A stretch of DNA of 64,000 nucleotides, from the NCBI GenBank assembly GCA_050084515.1, contig CM114271.1:25358001-25422000 (forward strand), read 5' to 3'. Below the pieces are notes generated by a model. The model had not been told where the DNA came from and did no database searches. It worked only from the letters and a program-made list of their open reading frames with translations. The DNA comes from Blasia pusilla (taxonomy: Eukaryota). The translations under genes and the position numbers were made by a program. Of the stretch, positions 15,920 through 60,743 are shown one piece after another (position 1 is the stretch's first letter; every line of letters starts with the position of its first letter).

Positions 15920-16561
15920 TATTGTGCGCATACACATTGCTATACAACATACATCGCTGTCACCGAACATACACACAAACATACATGATCCCATGCTAAC
16001 TCATGGCATCCACATAACAAGACGAGAAATACCAAAATATCTCCAATCTCACATTGGAAATCAATCAAATCTCTCTACATCTCACACCAAGGTCTCCACG
16101 ATGTGCACTCTCTCTCATGTCAAACCAAACCCATTCTCCTAATGAGAGGCTTGGATTACACACACAAGGCAAAGAGGACCATAGCTTCGCTACCTCATGC
16201 CAAGAGGTTCAACAAAGAGAGAACGAGCTCTCAAGCTTTCTCTCTTGGAGGTATACCCCTTCCCTCTCCCAAGCCCTCTCCTCGGTACCTATGCTCGCAG
16301 GTCACCTCCTTGGATCTTGACTTGCTGTAGCGGGTCAAAGGTTACTTCCAAAAGTGGAAAGTTGACTCTATCATAAACAACCACTTACCCGAAATATTAA
16401 GTTCTTCAATATGGCTGTAAGTGAGCCAAAACAAAGGGGAAACCTGCTCTCGTAAGTTATCCATGGCCTCATCAGGTGATCCTCAACTCCCTAAGGCTGT
16501 CCACCAGTACCTCCTAAGGTGAGCTACTAGATCTCCCCGATCTATCCTAAAAGACGTGACA
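15920..16561 (-). mobile_element. Solo terminal repeat (A+B) of gypsy family 1
   Basis: Reverse complement starts TGTCACGTCTTTTAGGATAG and ends GTGTATGCGCACAATA. Colinear with 24527-25150 and 35467-36102. Flanks ATTG/AGTG (possible 4-bp TSD, 1 mismatch). Confidence 0.85.
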
Positions 16562-17901
16562 AGTGTGTGGCAGAAAGGGAAATACTCTAATGAATCTTTC
16601 TCATGTGTATTTTTGGCCAAAGCATGCTTGAGCCAAGTGCATCACGAAAAGTCTCTTGCGTAGGTTCATTAACCAAATTTGGCATCCATAGAGCATGTTC
16701 AGGATCAAACACTTTGTCACGATTGTTAGGATAGATCAGCAAGATCTAGTAGAGCGCCTTCGGAGATACTAGAGGACAGCCTTAGAAGGTCGAGGATGAC
16801 TTGCTAAGGCCCCGGATAACATGAGAGAAAAAGTTTCCCCTTCGTTTCCGCTCATTTGGAGCCATATAGAGAAACTTACTATTTTGGGTAAGTTTCTATT
16901 TGGAGTGTAGTTGGCTTTCCACTTTGGGAAATGGCCCTTGACCCGCTATACCATGTCAAGATCCAAGGAGATGACTAGTGAGCTCAGGTTATCGTGGAGA
17001 AGACTTGGGAGAGGGAAGGGGATATACCTTCAAGAAAGAGAGCTTAAGAGCTCATTCTCTCTTTGTTGAACCTCTTGGCACGAGGCGGCGGAGCTATGGT
17101 CCCTTGCCTTGTGAGTGTAATCCAAGCCTCTTATTAGGAGGGTGGGTTTGGTTTGACATTGAGAGAGACATGTGAGAGCGCATACATGTGAGAGCTATGG
17201 TGTTGTGAGAGAGATTTGACCTTATTCTACAAAGAGAGAATGAGAGGGTAAGAGCTTCAATGGAGGAGCTTGCTGGTTACTCGCTGTTGGTGCAGGTTTC
17301 GTACCGTATTTCCTATTCAACGGCTCATGGGAGTGCTCACCGGATTAAGCGCTACTTGTTTTACTTTTTTTTGTTGTTAATTTTTTTGTGTGGAAGAGTG
17401 GCGCGCGGATCGGAAGCACTACCCAAATTTCCTTAGAGATGAAGTTTGGGGGCGGATTTCCCCATTCCAGTGCTCTCAAGAGCACCAAGTAGCTTGTTGG
17501 TTTTGATTTTACAGGTCTGAAGTTTTGTGTGGAAGAAATTAGCGCGGAAGCGCTGCCGATTTTGTCCTAGGAGTGCAGATTTGAAGGGCTGCAAGACTGT
17601 TCCTGTCAGTTGTTTTGGGAAAGTTAAATGAAAGAAAAAATTGAACCTTGTCATAGATCTCAAAGCTCTACACGTTGTGTAAGAAACGGTACGCAATTTT
17701 GAGTTGAGAGAAAAACATTATGATCAATCTTACAAAACTGCCATTGCTAGGTGATTTTTAGGGTAAAATTGTTCAAACCCTAAACTAACCGCCGTTTCCG
17801 TCATAGTCACCGTCAACGCTCCTCAGTTAACAATCAACCTTCAGAGTCGACGGTCTGCCATTAACGGTTCACTGTCATCATCCATTGTCCACCGTCAACG
17901 A

Positions 17902-19146: not shown

Positions 19147-20181
19147 ATGATCCACGGTGGACCGTCCGACATTGCTGCCGCCTAGCGCCATTGAGAGCCG
19201 CCTTCGGCCGTTGGTTGCCATTTCCTCCATTACGAAGCCACGACAACCGTTGATTCTCTGACTTGATCCACCACCATGTATTTTATTGTGGCCATTGCCG
19301 TCATCACAATTTTTTCATCAACCATTGATGGTAGGTGACCTCGGTTTGATGGTGTTTGAGTTTTCATTTCATTTTGCTATGTTGTGATTGGTAGCCGCTT
19401 GACGATGATCGAGCAATGTGCGGTGTTGCTTGTGGCCGCACCGTACCGTCTCGATCGCAGAGCCGCTCCTTCACTAAGGTATAGAGCATATGTATTGTTG
19501 ATGGAGGAAGGTATGCCGTGGAGTGCCGGATCTCATTATCGAGTGCCGTGCCATTTTATAGTTATTCCGTGCCGCACCGTATCGTTGGATCCGCACCGTA
19601 TAATGAGGAGCTTTAAGCATCGTCACCACTAGAGGGGTACGACTTTCTGATTGGAGGATTTTATCGTCACGACCGAGTTGGGATTAAGGTTTGCAGTTGC
19701 TAAGAAGCGATTGATATTTGTTCACATTACCCATTTTGGTCTTTTGCGAGTACGTGTTAGGGAATTCCACGTATTGGTAGTTATTTGGGATATTGGATTT
19801 CGTGCAGATGCTGAGAGCATCATTGATGTATGGGTTTAGAGGACATAGACCTATGTGGGGTGTCTAGAGTTGAGGGTGTGTGTTATTCATGAGATGATAG
19901 GATAGTAGTTGATTTGCCGCACCACGCCGCTTGTTGTCGCACAACACACTTCTCAGTGAGAGAGAGAGTGTAGATTGAGTGCCGCATGTTAGTTTGAGTG
20001 ATTGAATGATTACTTGTAAGGTTGAGAGTGATTGCGTCAGAGGGGTATGAGGATCATCATGGCATCATTTTGGGACTTTGAGAGGTGAGGTGGTGGACCC
20101 GAGAGTAGCTCTAGAGATTTTATGCGGAGTGGCGCAAGGTTTTGAGGGTCTTCACGTGAGGGAGTGACTTGACCTCCTTTT

Positions 20182-21706
20182 ATGTCATCTTCAGATGTGG
20201 GGGAGAGTGTAGAACAGTGTGTTAGTGCATCACTGCACACAGTTAGTGGTCCTACCCCTTGGGAGTACGAGATGGACGACCGGGGTAGAGGAGAACGTAG
20301 GTTTTTGGGTGCTATAGGCACTATAGAGTTACAAGACTTCATTTGCGGAGTTTATGAGTTGGTGTGACTCACAATGGGCTAGGAACTCTAGAGAGTTTAA
20401 CCCATTTACATCATGGAAAGATATGTTCTTGCACCTAGAGAGGGCATCCATGGACGATTACCATGAGTTCTACCACATATATGCCAAGGAGATTGAGGCA
20501 TGGCGACTCTACTATGACCCACACTATGTGTCATGGACGAAGCCGTTCCTAGATGAGGAGGAGTCAAAAGAGGCTACTTCCTCTTCCGCCAGTAATATGT
20601 TAGGAGGTATAACTCGCACTGGAGCAGTTGCATCGTCCAGTCAGGTCTATCCCATGTTCAACCCTGTGGTTGAGTTCTTTGCATAGATGAGGACGAGCTA
20701 CTAGGAGGTACGGACGGAGAAGTTTCGGAGCATCCACGACTTCCAGAGGCGCCCGGGTGAGAGTTTGCGGGAGGCCTAAATTCGCTTACGTAGGTTGATT
20801 AACGTCACTTAGGGGTGACAAAGGCCCAGGCTATCCAGTCATGGTACGCGATGCTGGACCAAACCTACGGACACGGGTGCGGGAGGGGGTGCTTCTTATG
20901 AACACCTCACCCATGTTGAGAGATGTTTTTAGGACCATCGAGAACATTGAAGGCAACATGGCGGAGGAGAGTGTAGCCACCATGAGTTCTAGGCAAGAGA
21001 AACCACGAGTATCTGCACCACCAATACAACAACGTGGATTTCGAGAGAGGACTGTGGCACCACGAGCATATGGAGGTTATCGAGAGCCTGTGCCACAGAG
21101 ACCTGCTCCATCATATGCGGCGCAGCAGCCGCCACATATTATTTGTTGGGCATGCGGTGGAGCTCATCAGCGGCACGATTGCACGCGTCAAGGTTATAAA
21201 CACGTGCCTCAGTATGGAGGAGGAGATGGTGCTGCACCAAGAGGTTATCAATGTGACTATTTTCAGAGGTATGGTCACACACACGCTAGATATTTCAGCT
21301 TACACCTTGAGTTACGTCTGGACCAAGGGCCAGAGAAGGCACGAGAGCAAGTAGCTAGTCCGGGTGGACCTAGAGGTCATGCATTAGGTGGTCCCGTTGG
21401 GGGACAAGGAGCTGGAGTTGCCCGAGGGGGTGGTGGAGTTGCCCGTGGAGGAGATAGAGTTCCACCACCTAGACCCGTCTAGGGGAGACACCGGGCATGA
21501 GGTTGGGGATGGCTGTTCAGATACAGCAGCTACAACAACAGATTGCCACTATGGCATTGAGGTTACTCGATGCCGGATCGATGGCATTGACGTCATATGG
21601 AGCAGCCAGAGATATGGAGGATCTTGGTTGGATGTTTGTGGTTGCCCTGATAGAGCCTGCCGCAATTATTACACGTGGAGCAGCCGTAGAGTTGGATCCA
21701 CAATGA
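20182..21706 (+). pseudogene. Degenerate gag of element 1
   Basis: ORF fragments FLGAIGTIELQDF / SWCDSQ...MDDYHEF and zinc knuckle CWACGGAHQRHDC plus a second decayed knuckle. Homologous to 50929-52539 and 45283-46519. Confidence 0.75.
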
Positions 21707-22138
21707 GGGGAAGCGAGACAAAAAACCATGCTTCCTCAGTCTTTCATGTTGTCTAAGGCGATGAGGACCCCATCGATGGGTCATGATCTGAGTTCCCGAA
21801 GAGTTGGTGATATTGTTGGTGTGCAAGCACAGAGGGCGATGGGAGAGGCGAGTGCGACGACTTCTATTGCTGATGCTTAGGAGGAGCATGTGTTGAGCAC
21901 GTTGTTTGGGGCAGCCAATGTTGTGTACCGCGCTCCTTTATTTTTTTGCTTCCGATGTTATGATGTTGGGAGGTACGCCCACCAAGAATTTCCAGCTGGC
22001 CGCTACGCTATATGAGCGTGGAGTTGGTGTTCCTGCGTCAGACTCACGGGTGATTGTAAAGGAGGTGATGGACTTGCCCTTGGAGCCTATGCTCGGGCCG
22101 TCCACGTCAGATTCATGGTAGGCTGGGGCTACTAGGAT

Positions 22139-22700
22139 GGCAGAGATGCCCGCTAGACCCGTGATAGAGTGTGCCATGGCTTCTCCTGGTGTTGTATTGC
22201 TGGATAACCGGGGAGAGGTATTCCAGTTGTTGATTCCAAGAGATAGAGTTCTTAGACCACAACGCGTCTTGTTGGATTCAGGAGCGCAACCCTAATGCTG
22301 GGGAAAGAGGCATTCATAGGATAGGGCTTGACGAGAGCCGATGTGGAGCATTGTCCACTCCGGGTACAGACATCCTTGGGTGGAGCAAATACCACAAAGT
22401 GTATCACCCGATAGGAAGTTGTGGTGAGGATTCGTCCGGGACATCCTACAGATGAGTCCGTGGTGCAAGCCAAGGCGATAGTGACCGATGTAGAGTCCTA
22501 CGACGTCTTGGTTGGTGGAGCACTATTGTACCCGATGAGGTTTTCTCTAGATTAATAGGAGGAGTCAACATCCTACAAACCAAGATGGCAGTCAAGTGAT
22601 GGGCGCCTTAGCTCATTCCTCGTTTGATTCATCGGTGGAGTGATCAAGCGACGGCCAGGAGAGATTGCGACCTAAGCAGCATTTAGCAACGCCATCATTC
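22139..22700 (+). pseudogene. Degenerate retropepsin (aspartic protease) of element 1
   Basis: RVLLDSGAQP motif at ~22262-22292, matching VLLDSGAQPLML in elements 2 and 3. Confidence 0.75.
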
Positions 22701-22818
22701 GGCCTAGTGATTTGATTGAGGGACATGTCCATGGAGAGGACACTCCCATTCTTGACATTTCTAAGAAGAGGAGTGTCATGGTAGCCGCATCAGTCCGTGG
22801 AGGAGAGGTGGCACCGTT

Positions 22819-24211
22819 GCGAGCACCGTGGGTGCTAGAGAGCGGGATCGGATCGCTACAGCGGGCCAGACGGTTCCGTTGGGAGGGGACACATGTTTTG
22901 AGGGTTTGGGAGGATGGCAGAGTACGCGTAGTGCCACATCCTTTGCAGAGAGCACGACTAGTGCAGCATGCCCACGAGGAGTTGGGTCACTTTGGGGTGA
23001 AGCGGAGATACAGCTTGCTCCAAATTCAGTATTGGTGGCGAGGCATGCAGACTGACATTCAGGAGTTTGTTGCTAGGTGCATGGTGTATGATCGGGTCTG
23101 AGCATCGTTCAATGCTCCGACTCCACAGTTGCATCCATTATCGATCATGGGCTTAGTGTATAGATGGAGTTTGGATTTTGCACGACCTTTGCCTTTGACG
23201 GAGCGTCATAGTCGTTATGTGTTGGTGATGGTCGACCACTTCTCAAAGTGGATCGAGTTGGTTTCATTGCCTGACAAACCGAGTGAGGGAGTAGCTTATG
23301 CCTTCCTTGACAGAGTGCTGAGTCATTACGGTGCACCGGCTGAGGTGTTGACATACCGGGGTACCGAGTTTTGCGGTGAGTTCCAGGCCTTGTGTGATCA
23401 GACACTGATCGATCATCGCACGACTTTGCGAGATCATCCCGAGGCGGATGGATTAGCGGAGAGAGTTGTGCAGACCGTGAAGAGGGGTTTACGCAAGTAT
23501 GGCTTGCAGAGAGTTCACCTAGGAGATTGGGACCTCCAATTGCCCTGGTCGGCGATGGGATACAGATTCAACAGGCAGACATCCTTAGCATCTTTTTCAT
23601 CGTACTTGCTATTTTATGGCCGAGAGCGAGATTTACCTGCGGCCATTCGTCGAGATGCTAGTGAGGTGTTGGACCTTGATGATCCAGATGTATGGATGTG
23701 AGCATGTTCTCAGAGGGCTGAGTTGTTTCGGAGAGTGATGCCCATGGCGTTCGAGAACTTGGCGATTGCACAACATCGGGATACTTTGAGGTATGCGACT
23801 ATTTGGGGTGGTGGTTATCGATCAACTATCGGGAGATTTCATCAAGGAGATTATGTCTACTTGCAGCAGATTGCACCGACGACGTTGGATGGGACTGCAG
23901 GGCGCACTATCCTGAGAGTGCGTGACATTTTTCCGTCCTGTGTTCTCTTGCTGGAGAGACGCGATGGTATGGTATGGAAGGACAATGTGCGTAGTTGTGC
24001 GCCATATCACCTTCCTAACATTGATGGTACAATAGATTCGAGCTCAGCAGTAGTTCCTGCAGGCTTGCGTTGTATGTTGTGTGGTTCTGCCCGTGGTGCG
24101 GCCACGATGCTAGTCTGTGATGTATGTTCGAGAGGTTGGCATATGGCATGTCTGACGCCACCTCTCACTAGGGTTTCTCAGGGACGATGGATGTGTCCCA
24201 GATGTACATAG
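22819..24211 (+). pseudogene. Integrase with C-terminal PHD finger (element 1), interrupted by stops
   Basis: HHCC region (HEELGHFG...CMVYDR), DDE core (WSLDF...VMVDHFSKW...ADGLAERVVQTVK) and C-terminal CMLC...LVCDVCSRGWHMACLTPPL...WMCPRC (C4HC3). Confidence 0.92.
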
Positions 24212-25150
24212 AGGAGATACTAGGTAGGTTTGGATTCCGACTTTTTCTGTGACATGGATGACAGGAAGGCAACTAACGATGGCCCCACATGAGCACCCGA
24301 CCTTGTTTCTCTTAGCGTCCTAGAGATGTATGTCGTGGTAGGTAGAGATAGATGGCTATTTGGAGTTAGAGGGACTTAACCACTAGCTAGGGGGGCGATT
24401 GGAGATATTTGGCACTTCTCGCCTCTGTGTTTGGATGCCATGAGTTAGCATGGGATCGTGCATGTTTGTGTGTGTGTTCGGTGACAACGATGTCTGTTGT
24501 GTAGCGATGTGTATACGCACGACAACTGTCACATCTTTTAGGATAGTTCGGTGAGATCTAGTAGAGCGCCTTCGTGAGTAGTGGAGGATAGGCTCTGTAG
24601 GTTGAGGATGACCTGCTGAGGCCTCGGGAAACCTGAGAGAGCAGGTTTCCTCTTCGTTTCGGCTCATTTGGAGCCATATTGAGGAACTTACTATTTTAGG
24701 TAAGTACCATTTTGAGTATATGATTGACTTTCTATTTTTGGTAATTGGCCCTTGACCTCCTACATCAGGTCAAGAGCCAAGGAGGTGACTTGGGAGAATA
24801 GGTCACCATGGAGAGAGCTTGGGTGAGGGGAGGGGTATACCTCAAGGAGAGAGAGCTTGAGAGTTCATTCTCTCTTTGTTGAACCTCTTGGCATGAGGCG
24901 GCGGAGCTATGGTCCCTTGCCTTGTGAGTGTAACCCATGCCTCTCATTAGGAGAGTGGGTTTGGTTTGACATGAGAGAGAGTGCATACCTTTGAGAGCTA
25001 TGGTGGGAGATGGTGTAGAGAGAGATTGGATCTTACTTTATTGGAGATATTTTGGTACTTCTCGCCTTTGAGTTTGGATGCAATGAGTAAGCATGGGATT
25101 GTGCGTGTTTGTGTGTGTGTTCGATGATAGCGATGTGTATGCGCACGACA

Positions 25151-35466: not shown

Positions 35467-36412
35467 GCATACACATCGCTGCACAACATACATCGTTGTC
35501 ACCGAACACACACACAAACACGCACGATCCCATCCTAACTCATGGCATCCAAACAACGAGACAAGAAGTACTAAAATATCTCCAATAAAATAAGATCCAA
35601 TCTCTCTCACAACACCATAGTTCTCACATGTGTGCACTCTCACATATCTCTCTCAATGTCAAACTAAAGCCACTCTCCTAATGAGAGGCTTGGGTTACAC
35701 ACATAAGGCAAGCAAGACCATAGGTCCACTGCCTCATGGCAAGAGATTCAACAAAGAGAGAATGAGCTCTCAAGCTCTCTCTCCTTGAGGTATATCCCTC
35801 CTCTCTCCCAAGCTCTCTCCATGGTAACCTATGCTCCCAAGTCACCTCCTTGGCTCTTGACTTGATGTAGGAGGTCAAGGACTACTTACCAAAAATAGAA
35901 AGTAGATCATATACTCAAAATGGTACTTATCTAAAATAGTAAGTTCCTCAATATGGCTCCAAATGAGCCAAAACAAAGGGGAAACCTACTCTCTCAAGTT
36001 TCCCGGGGCCTCAACAGGTCATCCTTGACCTACTGAGTCTGTCGTACACTACTTACGAAGCGCTCTACTAGATCTCACCGATCTGTCCTAAAAGACGTGA
36101 CAATTATCGTGCGCATACACATCACTACACAACATACATCGTTGTCACGGAACACACACACAAACACGCATGATTCCATGCTAACTCATGACATCCAAAA
36201 AATGAGACAAGAAGTACTAAAATATCTCCAATCGCCCCCCTAGCAGGTGGTTAGGTCCCTCTAACTACAGATAGGCATCTATCCCTACCTACCATGACAT
36301 ATATCTCTCGAACGCTAAGAGCAAGAAGGTCCGGTGCTCATGTGGCCCCATCGTTAGTCACCTTCTTGTTATCCATATCACAGACACAAGTCGGAATGTA
36401 GAACTACCTATT

Positions 36413-37790
36413 CTATGTACATCTGGGACACATCCATCGTCTCTAAAGAACCCTAGTGAGAGGTGGCGTCAAACATGCCATATGCCATCCTCTCGAACAC
36501 CCATCACAGACTAGCATAGTGGCTATATCATGGGCGGAACCACACAACATACACCGCAAGCTTGCAGGAACTATTGCTAAGCTTGGATCAACTGTATCGT
36601 CAATGTTCAGAAGATGACATGGCGCACTGTTACGCACACTGTCCTTCCAAACCATATCATCGCTTCCCTCCAATAAGAGAACACCGAATGGCAAAACCTC
36701 ACGCACTCTCAAGATGGTGCGCCATGCAGTCACATCCAACATCGTGGATGCCGTCTGCTGCAAGTAGACATAGTCTCCCTGATGAAACCTCAAGATAGTA
36801 GGTCGATAACCACCTCCCCAAATAGTCGCATACCTCAACGTATCCCGATGTTGTGCAATCGCCAAGTTCTCAAACGCCATGGGCATCACTCTCCAAAACA
36901 AGTCAGCCTCTGATAACATGCTCGCATCCATACATCAGGGTCATCAAGGTTCAACACCTCACCAGTATCTCGACAAATGGCCGTGTGTAAATCTGGCTCT
37001 CGGACATAAAGCGACAAGTATGGTGAGAAAGACGCTAAGGATGCCTACCTGCTGAATCTGTATTCCATCGCCAACCACGGCAACTAAAGGTCCTAATCTC
37101 TTAGATGACCTCTCTACAAGCAATACTTGCATAGTCCTCTCTTCACCGTCTTCACACCCCCCCCTCTGCTAGTCCATCCGTCTCAGGATGATCTCGCGAA
37201 GTAATGCGGTGGTCGATTAGTGCCTGATCACACAAGGCCTGAAACTCCCCACACAACTTTGTACCCTGGTCTGTCAACACCTCCGCTGGTGTGCCGTAAT
37301 GACTTAGCACTCGATTTAGGAAGGCATACGCTACTCCCTCACTCGCTTTGTCAGGCAATGCAACCAACTCTATCCACTTCGAGAAGTGCTCGACCATCAC
37401 CAACACATAACGACTATGGCGCTCTGTCAAAGGCAAAGGTCGTGCAAAATCCAAACTCCATCTGTAACCTAAACCCATGATCGGAAGTGGATGCAACTGT
37501 GGAGTTGGAACATTGAACGATGCTCAGACTTGATCACACACCATGCATCTGGCAACAAACTGCTAAACATCAATCTGCATGCCTCGCCACCAATACTGAA
37601 TCTAGAGCAAGTTGTACGTCCGCTTCACTCCAAAACGACCCAACTCCTCGTGGGCATGACGCACCAAACGTGCTCACTACACGCACGCTACCATCCTCCC
37701 ACAACTCATAACGCATATCTGCCCTCCCACTGGAACCATCTGGCTTGTTATAGGATCTGATCCCGCTCTCTAGCACCCATTGTGCTCGCG
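36413..37790 (-). pseudogene. Integrase + PHD finger of element 2
   Basis: WSLDFARPL...VMVEHFSKW...VLTDQG...DHPETDGLAE, then CMLCGS...LVCDGCSRGWHMACLTPPL..*RRWMCPRCT*. Confidence 0.9.
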
Positions 37791-38020
37791 ATGTTGCCAA
37801 TACACAAGTACTCCAAGACCACTCCATCATCGTGAATGTCTCAGCCACCTGTCATCTCCTCACCGACCTTTGGATCTAAGGACTCTCCATTAGACCTCGC
37901 CATCAAAGTCTCAACAATCTGGCTCTCCATAGCTAACAAGCCCAAATAGGCTGACGCATGCCATCTTGGCACCAACTCCTCATCACTCTCACCATGCCAA
38001 CGAGCTCCAGTCGCATCTCG

Positions 38021-39406
38021 CTAACTCGGGCATGGGTTACGACTCAAACCATCTGCATCCTGGTTGAGCATCCCTGGTCTATGCACCACTTGGAAGTCAT
38101 ACTCCTGCAACAAAAGAGCCCACCTTGCAAGCTTCCCTGTAAGCTTGTCGGACTCCATCAACCACTTAAGTGGCTGATATTCAGTAATGATGGTAAAGGG
38201 ATTCCCGAATAGATAACATCTAAAATGTGCGACAACCCACACTGTAGCCAAGCACTCACCCTCATACGAGCTATACTTCGCCTCTGCAGCGTTGTTCGAG
38301 CAACTAGCGTAAGCCACCACGAACTCTCTACCATCATCGTCATGCTAGGTGAGCATGGCTCCAAGCCCCAACATGCTCTAATCGGTATGCAAGTGGAAAG
38401 TACGCCCCTTGATCGGTCTCTTCAATATGGGCGCGGACGTCAATTTTTCCTTGAGCATCTGAAATGCTCTTTCTTGCTCATCCTCCCACTGCCACTCCTG
38501 ATCCATCTTGGTCATCAAGGTTAGCGGCTTCACAATTGAACTAAAACCCTTGACGTACCGTCGATAGAAGTTCACAATCCCATGAATGCATGAATTCGAA
38601 TCACATCAATAGGGCGCGGAATGCGTGAAATAGCCTCTACCTTTGTTTATTGCACACCAAGGCCCCCAGGGTATATTGTATGATCAAAGTACTCAATCTG
38701 GTCATAGAAGAACTTGCACTTGCCTAGATGTAGCTTCAGTCCATGTAATTGCAATCGTCAAAAAACCTCCTCTAAATGTCCCTCATGCTCCTCAACTGTG
38801 GCACTAAAGACTACGATATCATCAATATAATACCTAGAAAAATCCAGACCTACCAAGATCCTATCCATGACCCTCTGAAACTCAGCCAAGGCGCTCTTTA
38901 ATCCAAATGGTAAGAACCGGCACTAGTACAAACAATCCTTCCCGTGAGGATCGATGTCCCAAAATGCCGTCTTCTGCCTGTCCTCCAATCTGATAGGCAG
39001 TTGATGGTATTCGGCTTGCAAATCCAATGAACTGAAGACCTTTGCATGCCCGATCGCATCAAATATCTCCTTAGGAGTGGGCATGGCATACCTATCAAAC
39101 TTTGTCTGTCGATTGATAGGTCGATAATCTCCACACATCCGCCTATCCGTCCAATTGCCATGCACATCCTTCTTGACGCGCATGACAATGGCAGATGCAT
39201 ACTCTCCATGCAAAATCTCCACTAGTCCTGCTCCAACCAAGTCCTGGCTTCTACTTTGAATCAGAGCCCTCTCCATATCACTATACCTATAGGGTCATCG
39301 AAGATCAGCGTGTCACTCTACAACTCAATGCGGATCCCTGGACCCTTCAACATACCCAAATCATGCATACTAAATGCAAAACAACTCCTATAACTCCTAA
39401 GGAGCT
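38021..39406 (-). pseudogene. Reverse transcriptase + RNase H of element 2
   Basis: RRMCGDYRPINRQT, FSSLDL..YHQL, YIDDIVVFS (~38810-38830), NFYRRYVKGFS, LHTD, YSSYEGECLA, LARWALLLQEYDF, DADGLSR. Confidence 0.92.
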
Positions 39407-40137
39407 TGTCGTGCGAATCGTTGACATACCATACTCACATACATACATAACATAGACGAGAGCATCCACAAACATAACTGTACCACAACTGAAATCCGTG
39501 AAAGACCTACTGTCATAAAACACATATAGAATCACGCACAATCGAGCCAAACCCACTCCACGATGGGAGAATCTAGGTCGAAGCTTGCGGGGAAGACCAT
39601 AGCCAAGAGCTCTACTCACTACCAAGGCTAACTCCCAATGCAACAGGCTCAACTCAAAGAACTGACTGTTCTTTGGATGCACTCCACACTATATCCTCCA
39701 ACCGAAGAGCGGGCCCTACTGGGAAAGTTACCCCAACTAAGTAACCCCCAACCCTATGTATGAAACCACATCTCTACCTAGCCACTACGGTCCTACATAA
39801 GGTATGGCCTCTACTAGCACACTATATTCTACGACATAATCCGTATGGTTACGACAACTATCATGCGAATCCACCTTGTCATATAATATACATCGCTGAC
39901 ATACCATACTCACATACATACATAACATAGACGAGAGCATCCACAAACATAACTATACCACAACTCGCCCCCCTAACTGGCGGTTAGATCCCTCTAACTC
40001 CCAGGTAGCCCTATACATCTACTACGTGCTATACACCTTCGTGGGTGCACGAATCAAAAGGCCGGGTGCTACGTTGCCCCATTGTTAGTCGCACATCTGT
40101 AATCCATATCATGCAAAGATCAAGTCATCTACCTCTC

Positions 40138-41561
40138 CTAAATACATTGAGGACAAACCCACCTTCTAGTAGGAACAACATCCATACGTGGAGTCAAACA
40201 TATCATGTGCCAACCCCTAGAACACTGATCACACACCAACATACGGGCTGCGTTACCAGCAGACCCACACAACATGCACCTCAAGCTAGCACGTATCATG
40301 GCTAAGCTTGGGTCAACAGTACCATCCACATTTGGAAGATGACATGGCGCACAATTACGCACATGGTCCTTCCAAACAACTCCATCACGATCCTTCAACA
40401 TGAGAACTCCAGAAGCTAACACCTCGCGCACTCGTAAAATAGTGCGGCTTGCCGTCACATCCAACGTTGTCGGTGCAATCTGCTGCAAATAGACATAGTC
40501 CCCCACATGGAACCTACGAATCGATGGTCGATAACGTTCATCCCGAAAGGTTGCATACCGCAACGTATCTCTATGTTGAGCAATGGCAAGATTCTCAAAG
40601 GCTGTTGGCATAACTCTCCGAAAGAGCTCTGCCCGCTGAGAACATATCCTCATCCACATCTCTGGGTCATCAAGGTTCACCACCTCACTAGACTCCCGAC
40701 GAATTGCTGCTGGCAAGTGTGGATCTTGGCCGTATAATAGAAAATAAGGTGAGAAGGAAGCCAAAGATGCTTGGCGACTGAACCTATATCCCATGGCTAA
40801 CCATGGCAACTGAATATCCCTGTCTCCAAGGTGCCCCTTCTGTAAGCCATACTTGCACAATGCCCTCTTCACCGTCTGAACCACACGCTCAGCCAAACCA
40901 TCCGCCTCTGGATGATCTTGAGACGTGGTCCGATGATCAATCAACGCCTTGTCACACAAGACCTGAAACTCACCCTGAAACTCTGTACCCTGGTCGGTTT
41001 GCACTTCAGATGATGCACCAAAATGACTAAGCACTCTATGAAGAAACGCGTACGCCGTACCCTCACTTGCCTTGTCAGGTAATGCCACCAACTCAATCCA
41101 CTTGGAGAAGTGCTCCATCATCACCAACACATATCGATATGTCGTACAGTCAACGGTAACGGTCCCGCAAAGTCCACACTCCAACGGTAACCCAACCCCA
41201 TAATACGCAAGGGGTGTAACTGTGGTGTAGGGGCATTGAATGATGCCCTCACCCGGTCACAAACCATACAACGTGACACCAACTGCTGCACTGAGTATGC
41301 ATGCCACGCCACCAATATCGACCAAGGAGTAAGCTATACGTACGCTTTACCCCCAAATTGCCCCAACTCCTCATGGGCATGTCGCACAATGCGCTCTCTC
41401 TGAGCCAAATGCGGCACTACTCGTACTCTACCATCCTCCCACACACGGAGAATATGTGTTCCCTCCAATCGATACCTCTTAGCACGTTGAAGAACACGAT
41501 CTCGCTCCTTGGCACTCACTATGCCTGGCACCCTACTGGTCCGTATGAACTCCAACACCAA
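40138..41561 (-). pseudogene. Integrase + PHD finger of element 3
   Basis: 348-aa ORF with DDE core (MMEHFSKW...TDQGTEF...ADGLAERVVQTVK) ending CMLCGS...LVCDQCSRGWHMICLTP...WVCPQC. Upstream HHCC fragments. Confidence 0.92.
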
Positions 41562-41627
41562 CGCATCATCATGAATATCACGCTGATCCGCACGCCATCT
41601 CCAACCTTAGGATCTCAAGGTGGCCAT

Positions 41628-42880
41628 CTACCCTCGACTAGAGTAAGATGTCATGTGGTCCTCCATACTAGAGTCCACCCCTAACCAACATAAAAAGGCG
41701 GATGCATGCCAACCTGGCACCATCTCCTCATCAACCTCGCCATGCCATCTAACCCCAGTTGCATCCTCTTGGCTAGTATATGGGTTCCTACTCAACCCAT
41801 CAGCATTAAGGTTGGCAACTCCAAATCTATGTACCACATGGAAGTCATACTCCTGTAAGATAAGAGCCCACCGTGCAAGCTTCCCTATAAGCTTGTCGGA
41901 CTCCATCAACCACTTGAGCGGCTGGTGATGAGTAACAAGGGTAAACTGTGTGCCAAACAAGTAACACCTAAAGTGTGCCACAACCCACACTATTGCCAAG
42001 CACTCTCCCTCATATGAACTATAGGGCGACTCCGCTGCATTATTCGAACGACTTGCATAGGCCACCACAAACTCCATGTGCTCATCATCATGTTGTGTCA
42101 TACCGCTCCAAGTCCCAACCTACTCCAATCAGTGTGTAACTGAAATTGGCGCCCTCTAATAGGTCTCCTCTAGATAGGCGCCGCCACCAACTGGGCCTTA
42201 AGCTCCACAAAAGCTCTCTCTTGATCATCTCCCCTGTGCCACTCTTGATCTGATTTCAGCAATTGGTTCAAAGGCTTTGCCATAGCACTAAATCCCTTCA
42301 CATACCTCCGATAGTAGTTCGCCAATCCCATGAATGCCCGAACTCTACTCACATCTACCGGACGCGGAAAAAGTGCAATAGCCTCCACCTTTGCTTGCTG
42401 AACTCCCAAACCACCTGGATAGATCACATGACCCAAGTACTCAATATCCTCATGGAAGAACTTACACTTTCCTGGAATGCAAACGTAGACCATGAGCTTT
42501 CAACCGCTCAAACACCATCTGCAAATGTATGTGATGCTCCTCCACCGTGTTACTGAACACCAAGATATCATCAATGTAACACCGAACAAAATCCAACCTT
42601 GCTAGGATCCTGTCCATCACTCTCTGAAATTTGGCAGGTGCATTCTTCAACCCAAAGGGTAAGAATTTCCACTCGTACAAACAATCCTTGCCATGAGAGT
42701 GGACACCCCAAAATGTTGTCTTGGCCTTGTTACTCTCCCAAATTGGCAATTGATAGTATCCAGCCCGAAGATCCAAAGTACTGAAAATCTTTGTCTGTCC
42801 CACCACATCAAAGATCTCCTCAGGTGTAGGCATGGCATAGCTATCGGCCTTGGTTTTCCGATTGATAGGACGGTAATCTT
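41628..42880 (-). pseudogene. RT (N-terminally deleted) + RNase H of element 3
   Basis: DYRPINRKT...LDLRAGYYQL...LPFGLKNAP...CYIDDILVFS; ANYYRRYVKGFS; YSSYEGECLA...ARWALILQEYDF...NADGLSR. Confidence 0.92.
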
Positions 42881-42899
42881 CCACGATAATAGTCCGAAG

Positions 42900-43880
42900 T
42901 CGACGCTGATCGGCCATACCAAGACTCAAAATCCAAGTCAAACAATTCAAGTCCATGGCCTGATCCAACACAACGTCATGAAGCCTCAGAAATGGAAGCA
43001 ACCGTTGTCACACCAGTAGCAAATCCCATCGCACGCTCTATCTCATCAGCATTAGGCTCCACCAACTGTCGCACATGAGAATCCCATACAAGCCCAGGAC
43101 CACCTTCCCTGTATGCATGTGACGAGGGAAAACTCACAAATATGGGTAGTGCCATCCTAGGTTGGCCCACACGATTCACCACTGCCATGGGTGACCGATC
43201 AATAACCCTCACTACCTGAGAAAGTCGCCTAGTATCCAAGATACTATCCACTGTAAGGCAAGGATCCCGCTGCACTGCATCATATGCTCGACGTAGAACC
43301 TCCCTAGGCAACAAGTTTGTCCACCACAAGCGTGGACGATGTGCACGAGAGCCAACTCGCGCTGCATCCAACAACACCGCTGGTCCAATCCAAGACCGCA
43401 CCTCATGAACACTCGCCATCATCCGGGTCTGAGTGTCACCCAACAATGGAAAATTCTCCAGAATGTAAGCTAGAGTATGTGCCTGATGAACCTGAAGATG
43501 TCGTAACACCCGTAACATCTCCCAAAACAATCGAGACCTAGGGTCGTGTAATCCCTCACCACGACCACCACGTGTATGACCCTGACATGGCCATCCAGCA
43601 ATCACCAAATCCACAGGACCAACCCTCTCAAGGTCCTGCGCCCCCAACAATACAATGTGTGACGGCAAAGCACGTTGGTACCCACGAATAGCTGATGGCG
43701 GCAACAACTCAAGATATCTCCGCATCAACTGACCAATATGTCAGGATGAGACTCTCTGGGCCGTCTCATCTCGCTCCACATACACGTACCTCCGCACAGG
43801 AATACCGGCCTGCAACACTGCAGCCAAACCAGTGCTAATCCCACCAAAGAGATCTAACACACAAATGCCCTCCGACGGAT
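42900..43880 (-). pseudogene. DNMT3-like C5 cytosine methyltransferase domain within pol of element 3
   Basis: Motif I VLDLFGGISTG, II YVERD, IV DLVIAGWPCQG, V DPRSRLFWE, VI YILENFP, VIII DAARVGSRAHRPRLWWTNL, IX EIERAMGF, X VLDQAMDLNCL. At least one stop (43741) and one frame break near motif X. Confidence 0.93.
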
Positions 43881-44034
43881 ACTGCCATATAATGGGTATA
43901 GTATCCAAAGGGGATAACCCAACTGGACCAAAAGTAGGAGTCCGCCGTGGGGCCTCCTCTTCCTCGTGAGGTATAACAGCCTCACACCAAGCCTCTTGCA
44001 CTAGGCGATCAGCCTCTTGCGGTAGTGCACCGCC

Positions 44035-44820
44035 TCAACTCCAAAGTGGCACATCCAATGATGAGGATGCCACTGCTGCAAAAATAGGGACCTCCTCTAC
44101 CTCTTCATGCACAGGAGAATCCATAGCAGCAACATTACCCTCCAAAAAGTCTCTTGGCCAAGTGACTACTCCACTAAAACCAGCCAGAGATGCTAACACT
44201 GTTGGGGAAGACCCTCTTGGTCGAGCCCCATAAATAAATCTCACAGTAACTTGGCTCATATGTCCATCCCCGGACTGCCAACCAGGTCTATAAGACGCTG
44301 TCTCAGTCCAATAATCCATGTGAAAACCCATCCGGTACAATATTGCTCCTCTAACTAGTATATCATATTACTCGCATGATGTGACCACTGCACGTACTCC
44401 CAACCGAGATCTATCAGTCGCATGATCTGGTCTCAACAGTACAGAAAACTTCTGCCGTGTCATGAATTGAGACCTATCATTGGCTCCTCCAAGTGATGTT
44501 TGAATCTGGAATGGGCAAGGCTCAAGCTCTGACCTCCGAATACCCAAACCAATACATGTCGCCTTTCCCAACATCAAAGGTTGGGCACCAGAGTCTAACA
44601 AGACTCTATATGGTCTATACACCTGTCTTGTAGGACTTACCAATCGGAATATCCCATTCCGGTTGTCCAACATACATACACCAGGTGTAAGCCTCTCGCG
44701 ATCAATGGCTGGTCGGGTTGGTAATGCATCCATCTTCACCGCTGCTGCCTGCCAAGTAGCACTGATACTTAATGCTACACTTGACATAGAGGGTCGCTCC
44801 ACCGCAACACCCTCATCCAT
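44035..44820 (-). pseudogene. Aspartic protease of element 3
   Basis: RVLLDSGAQPLMLG...CPFQIQTSLGG. Confidence 0.85.
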
Positions 44821-45282
44821 CTCAGCACGTGCAGCAGTAACACCCCCACGTTCTTACAACGTGGCTGCTAACTGAAATACAGGAGCTAAGTTAACTCCTA
44901 AAGCCATTAGTTCCGTGGCCAAAAACAATGGGGATCCCAACACTGAAGTTGCCATCCGCAATACTGCATTGGATGCTGCAGCCGTGTCTACTACACGCGA
45001 TGTAGATGCCTCAGTCCCCAATGTCGGCTCAATAGGCTGCGTAGGAACCATGGATGGAGTCCTAAGCACCTCAGACAACAAGAATGACTGGGAAAGCCTA
45101 GCCTGCCTCCTAGCCTCATCCCTCTGTGGGTCCAACTCCACCGTAGCACCACGTGGCTCTGACGCTCGAGTGGCTCCTCTCGTAACTGCAGCCGATGCCT
45201 CAACTTGTGTTGCACTCGCCATATAAGAGAGATCATCCCCTCCATAAGAGATGGAAGCCCCTGCTCCCGAATCTGATCTATG

Positions 45283-46519
45283 CTAGATACCAGCCATAGT
45301 AGCCAACTTCTCCTCCAACTGCTCAATCTTGGCAGCCATAGCTGACTCTGTCATAGTGGTAGGGGTGGCCACCGTAGGCTCTCCAACCACCGGTCCACCT
45401 CTACCACCTCTACCACCTCTACCACCTCGGCCAATGCTCTCGAGGATGACTTGGTCTCCCGCAATGATCACACTAAAATGGGGCCGACTGAGGCCCATCC
45501 TCCAAAGTCCGTCTCCCATCCTCTTGGGGATAAAACTTCATAACATGATCACCTCCACATGTCCAACATGACTGTCCTTGCTACGGGGCAGCAAATGAAG
45601 GCAATGGTCTCTGCGCAAGTGTCCCTCTAGGACCTGACTGAGGTCGTGTGTACCCCCCACGACTCCCACTACTACTACCACCACCACTACTACAAGATTG
45701 TGAGGTGGGCTGCTGAACATGAGAAGTAGTAGTTGTATCCCTAGTGAATGCGGATGTCACCACTCTCTCCTTCACCATGTTAAGCTCAATCTTCTCAGAT
45801 AGAGCAAACACATGGGTCAATGTGGGTGAATCATCACTCATAAGAGTAGCATCACGTACCCTGCGGCGCAACTCTCTGTCCAAGATCCCATACCAAAACT
45901 GGATTGCCTAAGCCTGAGTCACACCCTAGGTAATTGATCAAGCGTCGCATACGAGTGTATGCCTCACGAAGACTCTCACCAGTCTTTCGCTCAAATTCCT
46001 GAAGACTCCTCAACTTCTCTATCTTCACTCCCTGATAGTTCTTCTTCAACCTCTTGAAGAACTCTGCAATCGGGCTGAACGATGGTCGGGCACTAGTACC
46101 TCCACTAGTACCCCCATTGGTACCTCCATGGGTACCTCCACTCGTACTCCCACTCCGGCTCGCACTCGTACCACTCAACGTCGGGCTGGTTAGCATAGTA
46201 GGAGCACTACTACCAATACCACCATGGGTGATAGACACATAGCCTGGAGACCAATATTGTCTCCACGCCTCAATCTCAGCAACATGATCCTTCCTAAACT
46301 CATGGTAATCATCCATGGGTGGTCCCTCCAAGTGCTAAAACAACCCCTTCCAAGCCAAGAAGGGTTCCGCAACATCTGCATATCACACCATGTATCAAAC
46401 TCCTGCATGAAATCCTCCAACTCAATGGTGCCCACTGCACTCGAGTATCGTCGTGGGCCCTTCATGGTCCCATATATTCTGTCCATGTCCCAAATCAATG
46501 GAGCTGCAACGTTTAACAA
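45283..46519 (-). pseudogene. gag of element 3
   Basis: AVGTIELEDFMQEFDTWCD, MDDYHEF, GVKIEKLRSLQEFERKTGESLREAYTRMRRLI (retrotransposon gag-like) and an RGG-rich nucleocapsid region. Confidence 0.8.
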
Positions 46520-48899
46520 CGTAGAAGACTCGGTGTTTGGAACACCCTCGTCCTTCTATTCATCAACTGTCGGAAGTGGAAAAGGTAGCCGATACCTCAA
46601 TCCACTCTGTGTAAAACCACCACTGTCCGCACCACGGTCCCCAACCTGACCACCAGACAGCTCCGTGATGACCAACGCCGATGCCGCACCACCACCAAAT
46701 TACCTCCACTAAGTAACCCAGTGACGTGGATGTCGTTGTACTATTCTAGCTCTACTAGCTATAGGTGTAGGCAACCTAACCTGTCATCACCACAAGAAGC
46801 CTCCCACGGTCTACTGGTCATCACTCCAGCCTCATTACTGCTAGCACACAGGAATAACACTACTTTGGAAATCAGCATCAACCCTAACAATGGGCGTGCA
46901 AGCAAGAAGCAACGATGGAGGGGATCCAAACACAAGAAGTCCAACGACAATCCTCCAATCGCAAATGGAAATCAAGGTAACACAATCCACCAAACGTGGC
47001 ATCCCCTGAATCCACAAAACCCACCACACAATTCTAACGCAATAGCTACTCCGCCGCGGGTCGATGACGCGCTAGTCGAACTTGGAGCACCATAAAATAT
47101 CACCTGTATGGAGAGGCTACACCGTACTATGTGCTAGAGGTCCATCAACCAAAAACCTGAGATGCATAAAGTGCCTAACACCTCTCCGAAGAGCACCAAA
47201 TGATCTACACCAATGTGTACACTGGCATAGTTAAGAACTCAGCAGTTAAGCGTCTTCCAAGCAGAATAGCCCAAAGATGGGTGACCAGTTATGCAACACT
47301 CAAATCACAAATCCTGCAGAAATTGCCTCACACCCAAGCAAGCAAGCAAGCTGCTTGCTTGCTTGCTTGCTTGCTTGCTCCTTGCTTCTTACTCCGCCTC
47401 TTTCTCCCACTCGCCCCGAGCTACCACGAGTTGCCTCGAAGCCTCAAAACGCCGAGAAATGCTTGAGACATGCCCCTATCGCCCGCTTCGCCATGCTTCG
47501 CTATGGAGAGAGGCCCAACCAGGGTAGGCATCTCCAACAATGAACGAGTCACCAACCAACCAGCCCCTCCAATCCGTTGTTGACCTTGAGCTAGTCCGCG
47601 AAATTTCGATCAGCAATTACTCCACAAATCCTCTACCAAAATTGAATTTTTTTCAACCAGAATTCAATTGACCACCATTGCTATCTCTCCACAAAAAATC
47701 AGCTACAACCAAGCTCTGCACTCCGAGCTAAAAATCAGACAAACTTGTTGTCCATACACCTCAAGAATCGCAAATCCGACAGCAATTCCGCCCAGTTTCA
47801 TGCACGTAGAAATCTGCAACGCTCCACACACTCAAGCAGATAGCTTCACATGAGATCACAATACAAGTAGCAATAGGAACCTCTCACCCAATCTGGATGA
47901 ACTTCAACACAGCTTCCGCACTCCAAGCTCTCCACATCAGAAAACCGTCGAACACGAACCAGAATCTTCAATCCTTGATAACTTCCAACTCCCTTGACGA
48001 AATCTGGCAATCTAAAGCGCGTTGGAAAGCTCTCACCAAGGCGCTTCTTTCCCAACCAACCACGCAGCAGATTCCTACCTCCAACATAGGCCACATGCCA
48101 TGAACATCCACGGATGAGTACACAATCAGCCCTAACCAGATCCTACTGATCCACAATCGAAGCTACCATGGATCTACTCTAGTTCTTTGAGTGAAATCCG
48201 TGAAAGACCTACTGTCATAAAACACATATAGAATCACATACAATCGAGCCAAAACCCACTCCACGATGGGAGAATCTAGGTCAAAGCTTGCGGGAAACAC
48301 CATAGCTAAGAGCTCTACTCACTACCAAGGCTAACTCCCAACGCAACACGCTCAACTCAAAGAACTGACTATTCTTTGGATGCACTCCATACTATATCCT
48401 CCAACCTAAGAGCGTGCCCTAATGGGAAAGTCACCCCAACTGAGTAACCTCCAACCTTATGTATGAAACCGCATCTCTACCTATCCACTACGGTCCTACA
48501 TAAGGTATGACCTCTACTAGCACACTATACTCTACGACATTATTCGTATGGTCATGACAAACTAGTGTATCCGGCTCCGCTCTCCTCCTGTCAACTTAGG
48601 GCCCATATCTAGCTCCCAAGTCTCCATCGTGACTACGGTAGGACTCTCCGGCGCGGGTATTGGTGGTTGCTATGGTGCAACCCCGTCTCGGACAATAGAA
48701 CTCTCATCTCCACGTGCAATATCCAGAACCACACTCGATGTTGTGGCTATCATTTCCTGGTGTACCTGCAAAACATCCCAAGAAGTCCAAGGGTGTCTCT
48801 CCCAATCATCCTTGGTGTGTTGATCTCCTCGGGTGTCGCCCCAAGCCACTGCCTCAACCATCTCGATAGGCGTGGGGCTCACCAACGCAATAGTTGCAA

Positions 48900-49885
48900 T
48901 CTGTCGTATCTTCACATGACGTTGCTCAGCTACTCCTAAGCTGAAAATCCATGTCAACCAGTTCAGGTCCATCGCCTGACCCAAGACATGACATCGTGAT
49001 GCCTCCGATAGTGATGGTACTTTCGTCACTCCTGTGGGGAATCCCATCGCTCGCTCTCCCTCATTGGTGTTGGGCTCCACCAACCTCTGTACCTGGTCAT
49101 CCCAAACCAAGCTAAGTATGGCGTCTTTGAATCCATAGGAAGCGGGAAAACTCACCAATGTGGGAAAGGCGGCTTGTGGCATGCCAATCCTGTTGACCAC
49201 AGTCAACGGCGGTCAATCATTGTGCCTCACTGCTTGTGATTGACGGCGCGGATCTAATATAGAATCCACCAACAAATCAAAGGGACGCTCCACTCTTGCA
49301 TAAGCCCTCCGCAATACCTCATGTGGTAACAAGTTGGTCCACCAAAGACGCGGGCGATGTGCTTGTGAACCCACACTCGCCGCATCTACCAACACTGCAG
49401 GCCAATCCATCCGCGCACCTCATGTACACTCGTCACCACGCGAGACCTCAAATCTCCCAAAATTGGCACATTCTCCAAAATGTATGTTGGAGAACGAGAC
49501 TAATGATCTTGTAAATGTCAAAAGATCCGCATCATCTCCCAAAACAATCGGGACGGAGTGTCAGCTAACCTGCTACCTCATCCAGCACTTGATTGGCCCT
49601 GACACGGCCAACTAGCAATGACCAAGTCTATGGTCCCTACCCGCTCCAAGTCTTGCATCCCAAACAATGAAATGTCCCTCGATAGGGAACTCTGGTAACC
49701 CTGAATGGCGGACGCAAACAACAAGTCGAGAAAATGGAGGTGTAACAACGCCATATGGTGAAGTGAAGCGCGCCTTGCAACATCATCAATCTCCACATAC
49801 AGGTACTGCTGCACGTGCACTCCAGCGTGCAAAACAGCAGCTAACCCAGTGTTGATCCCTCCAAAGAGATCCAACACCCAAATAC
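48900..49885 (-). pseudogene. DNMT3-like C5 cytosine methyltransferase domain within pol of element 2
   Basis: IWVLDLFGGINTG, YVEIDD, DLVIASWPCQG, YILENVP (~49468-49488), DAASVGSQAHRPRLWWTNL, ERAMGFPTGVT, CHVLGQAMDLNWL. Confidence 0.93.
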
Positions 49886-50229
49886 CCTTCTCAGGGATGC
49901 ACCACGCAATCGGGGTGGTATCCAAAGGGATCATAGCAGCACTCCTGCCTACCTGGGGTTCCTCTAACCCGTCACACTCTAGTGCAAATTTCTCGCTCCA
50001 CACGGTCTGCATGTGCTTAGTGGCTAAGCATCGGAGCTCCTCAGTCGAGCCCCAAAGCGACACCTCGCCTCCACAAACTACCATGACACTCCTCTCCATA
50101 GAAATGTCAAGAACGGAAGTATCCTCTGCGTGGACGTATCCCTCAATTAAATCACTAGGCCAAGTGATGGCACTGCTAAATGCTGCTAAGGTTGTGTCAT
50201 GGTAGCTATGGAAAATCCCATCGGGTATA

Positions 50230-50691
50230 ACACTGCTCCACCAACCAAGACGTCGTAGGACTCTACATCAGTCACTATCGCCTTGGCTCGCACCACAGAC
50301 TCATCTGTAGGATGTCTGAGCAAATCCTCACCACGACCTCCTGTCCGGTGATATACTGTGTGGTACTCGCTCTACCCAAGGATGTCTGTATCTGGAATGG
50401 ACAACGCTCCACATCGGCTCTCGTCAGGCCCAATCCTCTTAATGACGCTTTCTCCAACATCAGGGGTTGCGCTCCTGAATCCAACAAGACGCGCTGCGGA
50501 CTAAAAGCTCTACCTCCGAGACTCACCAATTGGAAGACCTCTCCCTTGTTATCCAACAACACAATACCAAGAGAAGCCATTGCACGCTCTATCCCGGGTC
50601 TAGCGGGCATCTTTACCATCCTTGCAGGCGCAACCTGCCATGGATCTGACGTGGACGGGCCGAGCATCCGCTCCAAGGGCAGGTCCATCAC
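50230..50691 (-). pseudogene. Aspartic protease of element 2
   Basis: QRVLLDSGAQPLML...CPFQIQTSLG. Confidence 0.85.
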
Positions 50692-50928
50692 CTCCTATGC
50701 AATCCCCTTTGAACGTGATGCAAAAACTCCAACTCCACGCTCACATAGCGTAGCGGCCAGCCGAAAAGCCTCGGCGGGCGTACTCCCAACGTCATAACAT
50801 CGGAAGCAAAAAAATAAAGGAGTGCGGTACACAACGGTGGCCGCCCCCAACAACGTGCTCGATACATGCCGATCCTGAGCATCAGCAATAGGAGTCATCG
50901 CACTCGCTTCTCCCATTGCCCTTCGTGC

Positions 50929-60740: not shown

Positions 60741-60743
60741 TGA

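Follow-up and report, generated by a model that had tools for sequence, protein, structure and literature searches.

A Ty3/Gypsy-type retrotransposon of Blasia pusilla with a likely integrase site inside its long terminal repeat

The window analysed here is a stretch of 64,000 nucleotides (nt) of Blasia pusilla DNA (GenBank assembly GCA_050084515.1, contig CM114271.1, positions 25,358,001 to 25,422,000 of the forward strand). It contains copies of a Ty3/Gypsy-type retrotransposon whose parts stand in an unusual order: A1, coding region, B1, 2 nt, A2, B2, where A is a repeat of 370-520 base pairs (bp) and B a repeat of 107-128 bp. At the B1|A2 junction the two ends of the integrated element are copied head to tail. 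This junction is real and conserved, and it is likely an internal integrase site of a Ty3/Gypsy variant. It is probably an attachment (att) site that lies inside the long terminal repeat (LTR) and is opened after the ends of the complementary DNA (cDNA) have been joined. A jump of the reverse transcriptase (RT), weighed below, could replace the joining step; that integrase acts inside the LTR by one of these two routes can be stated with high confidence.

Three junctions are present in the window: GCACGACA-AC-TGTCAC at 24517-24532 on the forward strand (element E1), GCACGATA-AT-TGTCAC at 36097-36112 on the reverse strand (E2), and GCATGATA-GT-TGTCGT at 39851-39866, also on the reverse strand (E3). 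All three had been reported in a first-pass annotation of this DNA, and each was found in its place. A loose form of the junction motif, of which the window holds these 3 examples, occurs on average 0.02 times and at most once in 100 first-order Markov resamplings. Genome-wide pattern searches were made in genome G000 (390 Mb). The pattern GCGCACGACA-N{0,8}-TGTCACGTC has 464 matches there and the reversed control pattern has none; a spacer of N{3,12} gives 3 matches and one of N{0,1} gives 0.

The length of the spacer is nearly constant. A variable spacer, with the 4-5 nt of a target site duplication (TSD), had been named in advance as the outcome that would speak against a cleavage site; instead, the spacer is 2 nt long in 461 of the 464 strict matches. 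The same length is found in all 30 loci of the second family, that of E3 (25 by script, 5 by eye). In metagenomes, 22 of 80 loci, or about 18 distinct copies, have an A start 2 nt past B with the same core. Their integrases are 46-78% identical, and no spacers of other length were seen among them; at 2 further metagenome loci the palindrome is present and a second B is not visible. Longer palindromic variants of the junction, with both arms changed, occur in or near distant relatives (L133:1622-1639 and L152:2354-2371), and the variant palindrome of L152 stands apart from the B end.

The letters of the spacer are less free than its length is fixed. The first-pass annotation had expected the form CA-N2-TG, of which the constant length stands and the free N2 does not: in a hand count, 89 of the first 100 matches listed carry AC (41), GT (23), GC (14) or AT (11), the rest being 10 other 2-nt spacers and one 3-nt spacer. 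On a poorly resolved tree of 59 of 60 loci (L236 left out), the letters are unrelated to the branching of the copies, with 28 changes against 30.6 ± 1.6 under shuffling. A control site on the same tree shows 1 change against a shuffle mean of 6.7. Inherited spacer variants were rejected because of this lack of tree signal. Of the contexts tested in these copies, GCTG decays most readily (mean 0.26, up to 0.6). As the spacer letters show no tree signal and GCTG is so prone to decay, the original spacer was likely GC, within the palindrome GACA-GC-TGTC, and has decayed after insertion. Special methylation of AGCT by the element's own enzyme was also considered and rejected, as AGCT sites are not hot (mean 0.04-0.06).

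The junction halves copy the true ends of the element, as had been proposed. Among the full copies with their left end in range, taken from 20 extended loci, all 8 have a 4-bp duplication outside A1-TG and B2-CA, which is exact in 7 and has one mismatch in 1. A 4-bp TSD is also found at L166 and L178 and, in metagenomes, at L153 (exact) and L128 (one mismatch); the flanks of two copies in the window, E3 and E4, are given in Table 1. The spacer is missing at the integrated ends. TG/CA ends with a short target duplication are the signature of a DDE integrase. Some copies lie inside copies of the same family (L193, which was extended, L012 and L170), and L193 has 4-bp duplications at both levels.

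The ends expected from reverse transcription lie elsewhere. Of 60 loci taken in position order, 59 have a polypurine tract (PPT) right before B1. A is followed directly by 12-16 nt complementary to a stretch inside A, which form a primer binding site (PBS) of the self-priming type described for Tf1/Sushi and Tcn1 (PMC6317226). The complementarity covers 16 of 16 nt in E1, 14 of 16 nt in E2 and 12 nt in E3. It extends over 16 nt in four of the 8 other full copies, and over 13-15 nt in distant relatives. Because B starts at the PPT and A ends at the self-priming PBS, the LTR made by the standard pathway would be B-spacer-A, and the cDNA ends would carry neither TG nor CA. In a fold of the E3 leader, the PBS pairs with its complement, with an overall z-score of only -1.29.

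RNA reads from runs of the same species are mostly 90-95% alike to the reference copy and report on the family, not on one locus. In all three raw-read runs, B1-A2 is covered about 100-350 deep, one poor-fit bin excepted, and B2 is covered 13-33 deep. This profile fits a template that ends in A2. The reads are sense if the libraries are stranded in the usual way.

For the A2|B2 join, the genome holds 1456 strict matches to an A|B pattern, which is blind to deletions that remove its anchors. By hand count, the first 100 of them comprise 72 precise joins, 24 with letters of the PBS, 1 with AG and 3 with substitutions, and the PBS remnants are its first 1, 2, 4, 11 or 24 letters. Among 50 unselected loci in which B2 was found, 31 joins are precise, 15 have an added A and 4 are of other kinds: filler plus a PPT remnant, and short deletions, such as those of 14 nt between short repeats at L262 and L280. 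Filler DNA and short-repeat deletions are typical of end-joining repair.

The join type with the added A is scattered on the tree, with 15 changes for 15 copies (shuffle mean 12.9), where the control site has 1 (6.7). PBS remnants at the join occur in a distant family too; the joins seen in family E3 have neither gained nor lost letters. Within the family of E1 and E2, B2 is nearer to its own B1 than to others (2 of 5000 permutations). Given the primer remnants, the filler and the lack of inheritance on the tree, it looks as if each copy acquires its A2|B2 join anew rather than by descent.

Footprints of a cut can be found at the junction itself. In 3 of 7 hits from the family of E1 and E2, PPT-B-CA-GC is joined straight to the start of B, and A2 is absent to the base. 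The three loci are not mutual nearest relatives; a full-length one among them has a TSD with one mismatch. A locus with one A between the B copies (L220) and three with other rearrangements (L215, L217, L219) were not counted. Family E3, where such forms were looked for on prediction, has B-CA-GC|B in both of its 2 hits. In one of these, a PPT remnant separates GC from B, and the TSD has one mismatch; the other is of the form A|B-GC|B (L286), and its TSD is exact. Five loci in two families end right after CA-GC and are rejoined to B; this is the footprint expected of a cut at this point, and is indirect evidence of one. A DNA end after the spacer would result from a nick after the bottom-strand CA, either by fill-in of the 2-nt overhang or by polymerase run-off. 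The counterpart, in which a cut A start would follow directly on an A end, gave 0 hits in the pattern search.

A life cycle can be proposed from these observations. Self-priming after A and plus-strand priming before B, at the positions of the PBS and the PPT, would let RT produce B-GC-A-genes-B-GC-A. The two ends of this cDNA would be joined, as in a 2-LTR circle, and A2|B2 would arise afresh in each copy. At the upstream palindrome, the DDE integrase would nick both strands after CA, dropping the 2 nt, and the two CA ends would be inserted 4 bp apart. The product is the one observed, A1-genes-B1-GC-A2-B2 with a 4-bp duplication. The downstream palindrome would remain in the inserted copy and serve as template in the following round, and the join could be sealed either before or after the cut. 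The product and the footprints are seen in the copies; the cut and the order of steps are inferred.

The first-pass annotation had described the junction as a genome-encoded integrase cleavage site at which staggered nicks create both processed ends at once. The footprints support the site; one nick followed by polymerase run-off explains them as well as two simultaneous nicks would. The genomic junction had also been taken as the place of the cut. It would be better described as a template that is copied into both LTRs, of which the upstream copy is normally the one opened.

The precedent offered for such a site was the circle junction of IS3-family elements. In IS3 and IS911, abutted ends that are separated by a short spacer are likewise opened by a DDE enzyme, and this spacer is donor flanking DNA each time, unlike the element-encoded and conserved spacer found here. 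A closer precedent is the prototype foamy virus integrase, which cuts both strands after CA at its palindromic LTR-LTR junction and leaves 5'-AT (Delelis et al. 2005, PMC1180852). The shared traits are a DDE integrase, a palindromic end-to-end junction, and a cut after CA that gives a 2-nt 5' overhang. The foamy virus junction is formed by ligation of cDNA ends, as a side route. In contrast, the junction described here would be encoded in the LTR and transmitted through RNA, the cDNA ends would not be att sites, and every intact insertion examined has used the junction. The 2-LTR circles of HIV-1 are a further system for comparison (PMC4372172).

Several observations weigh against an att site opened after end-joining. 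In a looser search, rare copies have a spacer of 1, 3 or 4 nt (L167, L178, L186). Those with 3 or 4 nt are present in the genome, and one of them has an exact TSD (L178); these spacers may have been altered after insertion. The copies share descent, so constant length in one family alone is not proof of selection, and the argument for selection is carried by conservation across families. The tie between B2 and its own B1 is weak in family E3 (118 of 5000 permutations; with transversions only, 4253 of 5000). Of the three B-GC|B loci in the family of E1 and E2, one lacks a TSD and another lacks a left end in range. The family reads show no sharp starts or ends, and none of the former at the predicted self-primer. 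E1 itself has no TSD.

A further difficulty is that only one of two possible products is seen. A closed 2-LTR circle has two equal sites, and opening of the other one would give a mirror product, A|B-spacer-A-genes-B. The mirror pattern has 3 hits against 500 for the normal order, all three being a solo or tandem duplications rather than a true mirror, and the product occurs in 0 of 60 loci taken in position order. The upstream site would thus nearly always be the one opened, a preference that a plain closed circle does not account for.

Copies of the form A-genes-B might be read as proof of integration from a 1-LTR circle; they were not used as support. The pattern has 111 hits, and 22 of 30 inspected end at CA into flanking DNA. 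Among 16 that were extended, 10 have a left end, with 7 exact TSDs, 2 with one mismatch and 1 without a TSD. The A-genes-B copies are more diverged from their nearest relatives than full copies (median 9.0% against 6.7%; n = 21 and 43; p = 0.009), and make up 5 of the youngest 21 copies. Because they are older, recombination between B1 and B2 after insertion explains at least part of them. In metagenomes, 23 loci end in the A-genes-B style, to which collapse of short reads may have added. Tandem B-spacer-A|B-spacer-A units, with the same spacer in both, stand at the 3' end of L052 and L053, by unequal recombination or from multimeric cDNA.

One-sidedness is explained more naturally if RT itself makes the join. 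With the plus strand finished, it would jump from the right cDNA end to the left end and recopy B, with no host end-joining and no double cut. In the upstream palindrome, integrase would nick the minus strand alone; the polymerase would run off after CA-GC, and ordinary 3' processing would trim the 2 nt. The plus strand alone is completed while a free 3' end is at hand, in keeping with 0 mirrors against 500 normal copies. Most joins would be expected to be precise, as are 72 of the first 100 listed and those seen in family E3. The B-GC|B and A|B-GC|B (L286) forms would be a run-off followed by another jump. Filler with a PPT remnant at L166 and the deletions at L262 and L280 have the look of end-joining repair, and a jump alone leaves the sparing of the intact downstream site unaccounted for. 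Compared with an att site opened after end-joining, the jump explains one-sidedness better and filler DNA worse; it is the chief alternative, though taken as a whole rather unlikely.

The repeat layout also recalls elements of the DIRS order. PAT, Ngaro and VIPER have the arrangement A1-genes-B1-A2-B2, in which B1|A2 mirrors the joined element ends (PMC4157794, PMC7192593), and the internal complementary region of DIRS-1 serves as a template for rebuilding ends (PMC7192593). By analogy, RNA would run through B2, A2|B2 would be inherited, and B1|A2 would act only as a template. The join types, however, are not inherited and carry PBS and PPT remnants; RNA depth drops before B2; reverse transcription has a normal path, set by a canonical PPT and a self-priming PBS; and the B-CA-GC|B forms require a DNA end at the junction. 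This explanation is improbable.

Split direct repeats otherwise mark elements with a tyrosine recombinase, and such an enzyme, the element's own or acting in trans, could integrate a circle at the junction with the DDE integrase as a passenger. Against this stand the TG…CA ends, the varied 4-bp duplications, the loss of the spacer on insertion, and the invariant catalytic positions of the integrase. No tyrosine recombinase was found in 47 open reading frame (ORF) pieces of two full copies, which are decayed enough that a small lost ORF is conceivable, and no recombinase domain occurs in the domain lists of 120 homologous polyproteins. A recombinase at work here is very improbable. PAT, Ngaro and VIPER are thus alike in layout and unlike in machinery, since the present elements have a DDE integrase, a protease, a PPT, a self-priming PBS and a 4-bp TSD. 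Nested and tandem copies are common in the genome, and the junction might be a fossil of one, its spacer a target remnant; self-insertion predicts 4 variable nt rather than the 2 nt of 461 in 464 matches, the junction keeps its position across three repeat families that cannot be aligned and across other organisms, and the spacer counts have already refuted this reading.

The proteins agree with a Ty3/Gypsy origin. Pfam domains include RT, RNase H, an rve integrase with an H2C2 finger, a C-terminal PHD finger, and a C5 methyltransferase; RT, RNase H and integrase score above Pfam's cut-off, and gag and protease matches fall below it. The gene order is that of Ty3/Gypsy elements: Gag, protease, RT, RNase H, integrase. 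D47 and E82 of the integrase, 35 residues apart, are invariant in 24 aligned relatives (D-35-E), and there is a weak match to Ty3 Gag-Pol (E 3.4e-05). The termini, TG…CA with a TSD in the range of 4-6 bp, are also those of the class. Whole flanking LTRs whose outer ends are the integrated ends are not found; the PPT-to-PBS unit is B-spacer-A, and the integrated copy is its permutation, A…B-A-B.

Chromoviruses have a chromodomain at the C-terminus of the integrase, where these elements have a PHD finger instead. The chromoviruses Tf1/Sushi and Tcn1 share the Gypsy domain order and a self-priming PBS, and differ in their chromodomain, in having whole LTRs and in having TG…CA at the ends of the cDNA (Neumann et al. 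2019, PMC6317226). Troyka elements, which have CG…CG termini and a 3-bp TSD and are restricted to animals (PMC12440569), are excluded by the TG…CA ends and 4-bp TSD found here. By proteins, termini and TSD the element belongs to Ty3/Gypsy; it is not a tyrosine recombinase element, a Troyka element or a chromovirus.

The nearest named homologue of the integrase is from Marchantia (82%), followed by green algae. Among the green algae, several have named homologues. A protein search with the methyltransferase matched only 3 proteins. One annotated Marchantia gene (P0004, Mp7g09570) has a product that by eye resembles an internally deleted member, with a protease tail, a partial methyltransferase, a partial integrase and a PHD finger. 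In P0066 and P0107 a methyltransferase-like stretch appears, by eye, after RNase H and not before RT, so that its position in Pol varies.

A described element with a similar arrangement is KnitGypsy-Dnmt3 of Klebsormidium nitens, whose Pol carries a C5 methyltransferase besides the Gypsy domains (de Mendoza et al. 2018, PMC5890265). The legend of Fig. 4c in that paper mentions a DIRS-element-like repeat arrangement, and for another element the paper writes the DIRS arrangement as A-coding-B-A-B. The text covered contains nothing on a junction, a spacer, a TSD, priming or an integration mechanism. Layout and domains suggest kinship. The integrase and methyltransferase protein searches returned no match labelled Klebsormidium, most matches having no name. 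In the literature covered, with most subscription journals, Repbase Reports and supplements outside its scope, the layout appears only in the Klebsormidium legend and the mechanism was not found; within the same incomplete coverage, the name KnitGypsy-Dnmt3 was not found in other papers.

On balance, these elements appear to form a widespread clade of LTR retrotransposons in the green lineage, in which the att site has moved from the cDNA ends into the LTR and opening of end-joined cDNA at the palindrome has become the obligatory route. If so, they would be a natural system for the circle-junction model, which is at most a side path in retroviruses. A retroviral-type integrase would then cut an internal 10-bp palindrome as a sequence-specific endonuclease, independently of the ends made by RT, and a rule thought general for LTR elements and retroviruses would change. 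The junction would also supply a short oligonucleotide substrate for the disputed question of circle-junction precursors. The split direct repeats of PAT and Ngaro may also be explained in this way, by an LTR that RT defines as B-A and an A|B join made afresh. For annotation, programs that require two TG…CA LTRs are likely to miss the family or misplace its bounds, in a genome with 1456 strict A|B joins.

Table 1. Retrotransposon copies E1 to E4 and their parts, in window positions.
Feature	Position	Strand	Remark
E1, whole element	16715-25150	+	without methyltransferase, RT, RNase H
E1, A1 repeat, left end	16715..17228	+	starts TG; 84% identical to A2
E1, exact reverse complement of the PBS in A1, 16 nt	17051..17066	+	predicted self-primer (RNA 5' end)
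E1, PBS adjoining A1	17229..17244	+	self-priming type, no TGG tRNA start
E1, decayed gag and protease region	20142..22545	+	82% to E2
E1, integrase, three stop-separated pieces	22676..24211	+	H2C2 zinc finger, rve core, C-terminal PHD finger
E1, PPT adjoining B1	24389..24397	+	
E1, B1 repeat	24398..24524	+	92% identical to B2 over 110 aligned nt
E1, B1|A2 junction	24517..24532	+	spacer AC at 24525-24526; GACA B end, TGTC A start; likely integrase att site
E1, A2 repeat	24527..25039	+	
E1, B2 repeat, right end	25040..25150	+	ends CA; 25039|25040 is the likely meeting point of cDNA ends
E2, family of E1	35467..54451	-	gag-protease-methyltransferase-RT-RNase H-integrase-PHD; E3 nested inside
E3, second family, nested in E2	39407..48559	-	12-nt self-priming PBS; flanks AGTT/AGCT
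E3, C5 cytosine methyltransferase domain	42979..43740	-	between protease and RT; PF00145, E 2.8e-07
E4, solo A|B	15920..16561	-	no internal region; flanks CACT/CAAT

The elements of the window are listed in Table 1. E1 has lost its methyltransferase, RT and RNase H to a deletion at about 22790-22810, and the last 8 nt of E2 are missing. The coding region of E3 is about 70% alike to that of E1 and E2, and the repeats of the two families cannot be aligned.

An array of repeats of about 180 bp (25122-26878) starts right at the right end of E1. Similar flanks had the appearance of a 12-bp TSD at this element, which was rejected because other copies have 4 bp and the left flank is unlike the satellite. 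The missing target duplication, and an A1 that matches A2 at only 84%, suggest that E1 may be a recombinant of two copies.

The window also contains a further fragment of the methyltransferase region (60743-61702), from the same group of elements and 84% alike to E2. Remnants of other transposons at 27637-29125, 33548-34066 and 59562-60167 include hAT domains (Dimer_Tnp_hAT, DUF659), a piece of a Pif1 helicase, and DUF4218. A 195-bp tandem duplication (96%) lies at 13491-13884, and 62997-63186 holds a short array whose period is about 24 bp.
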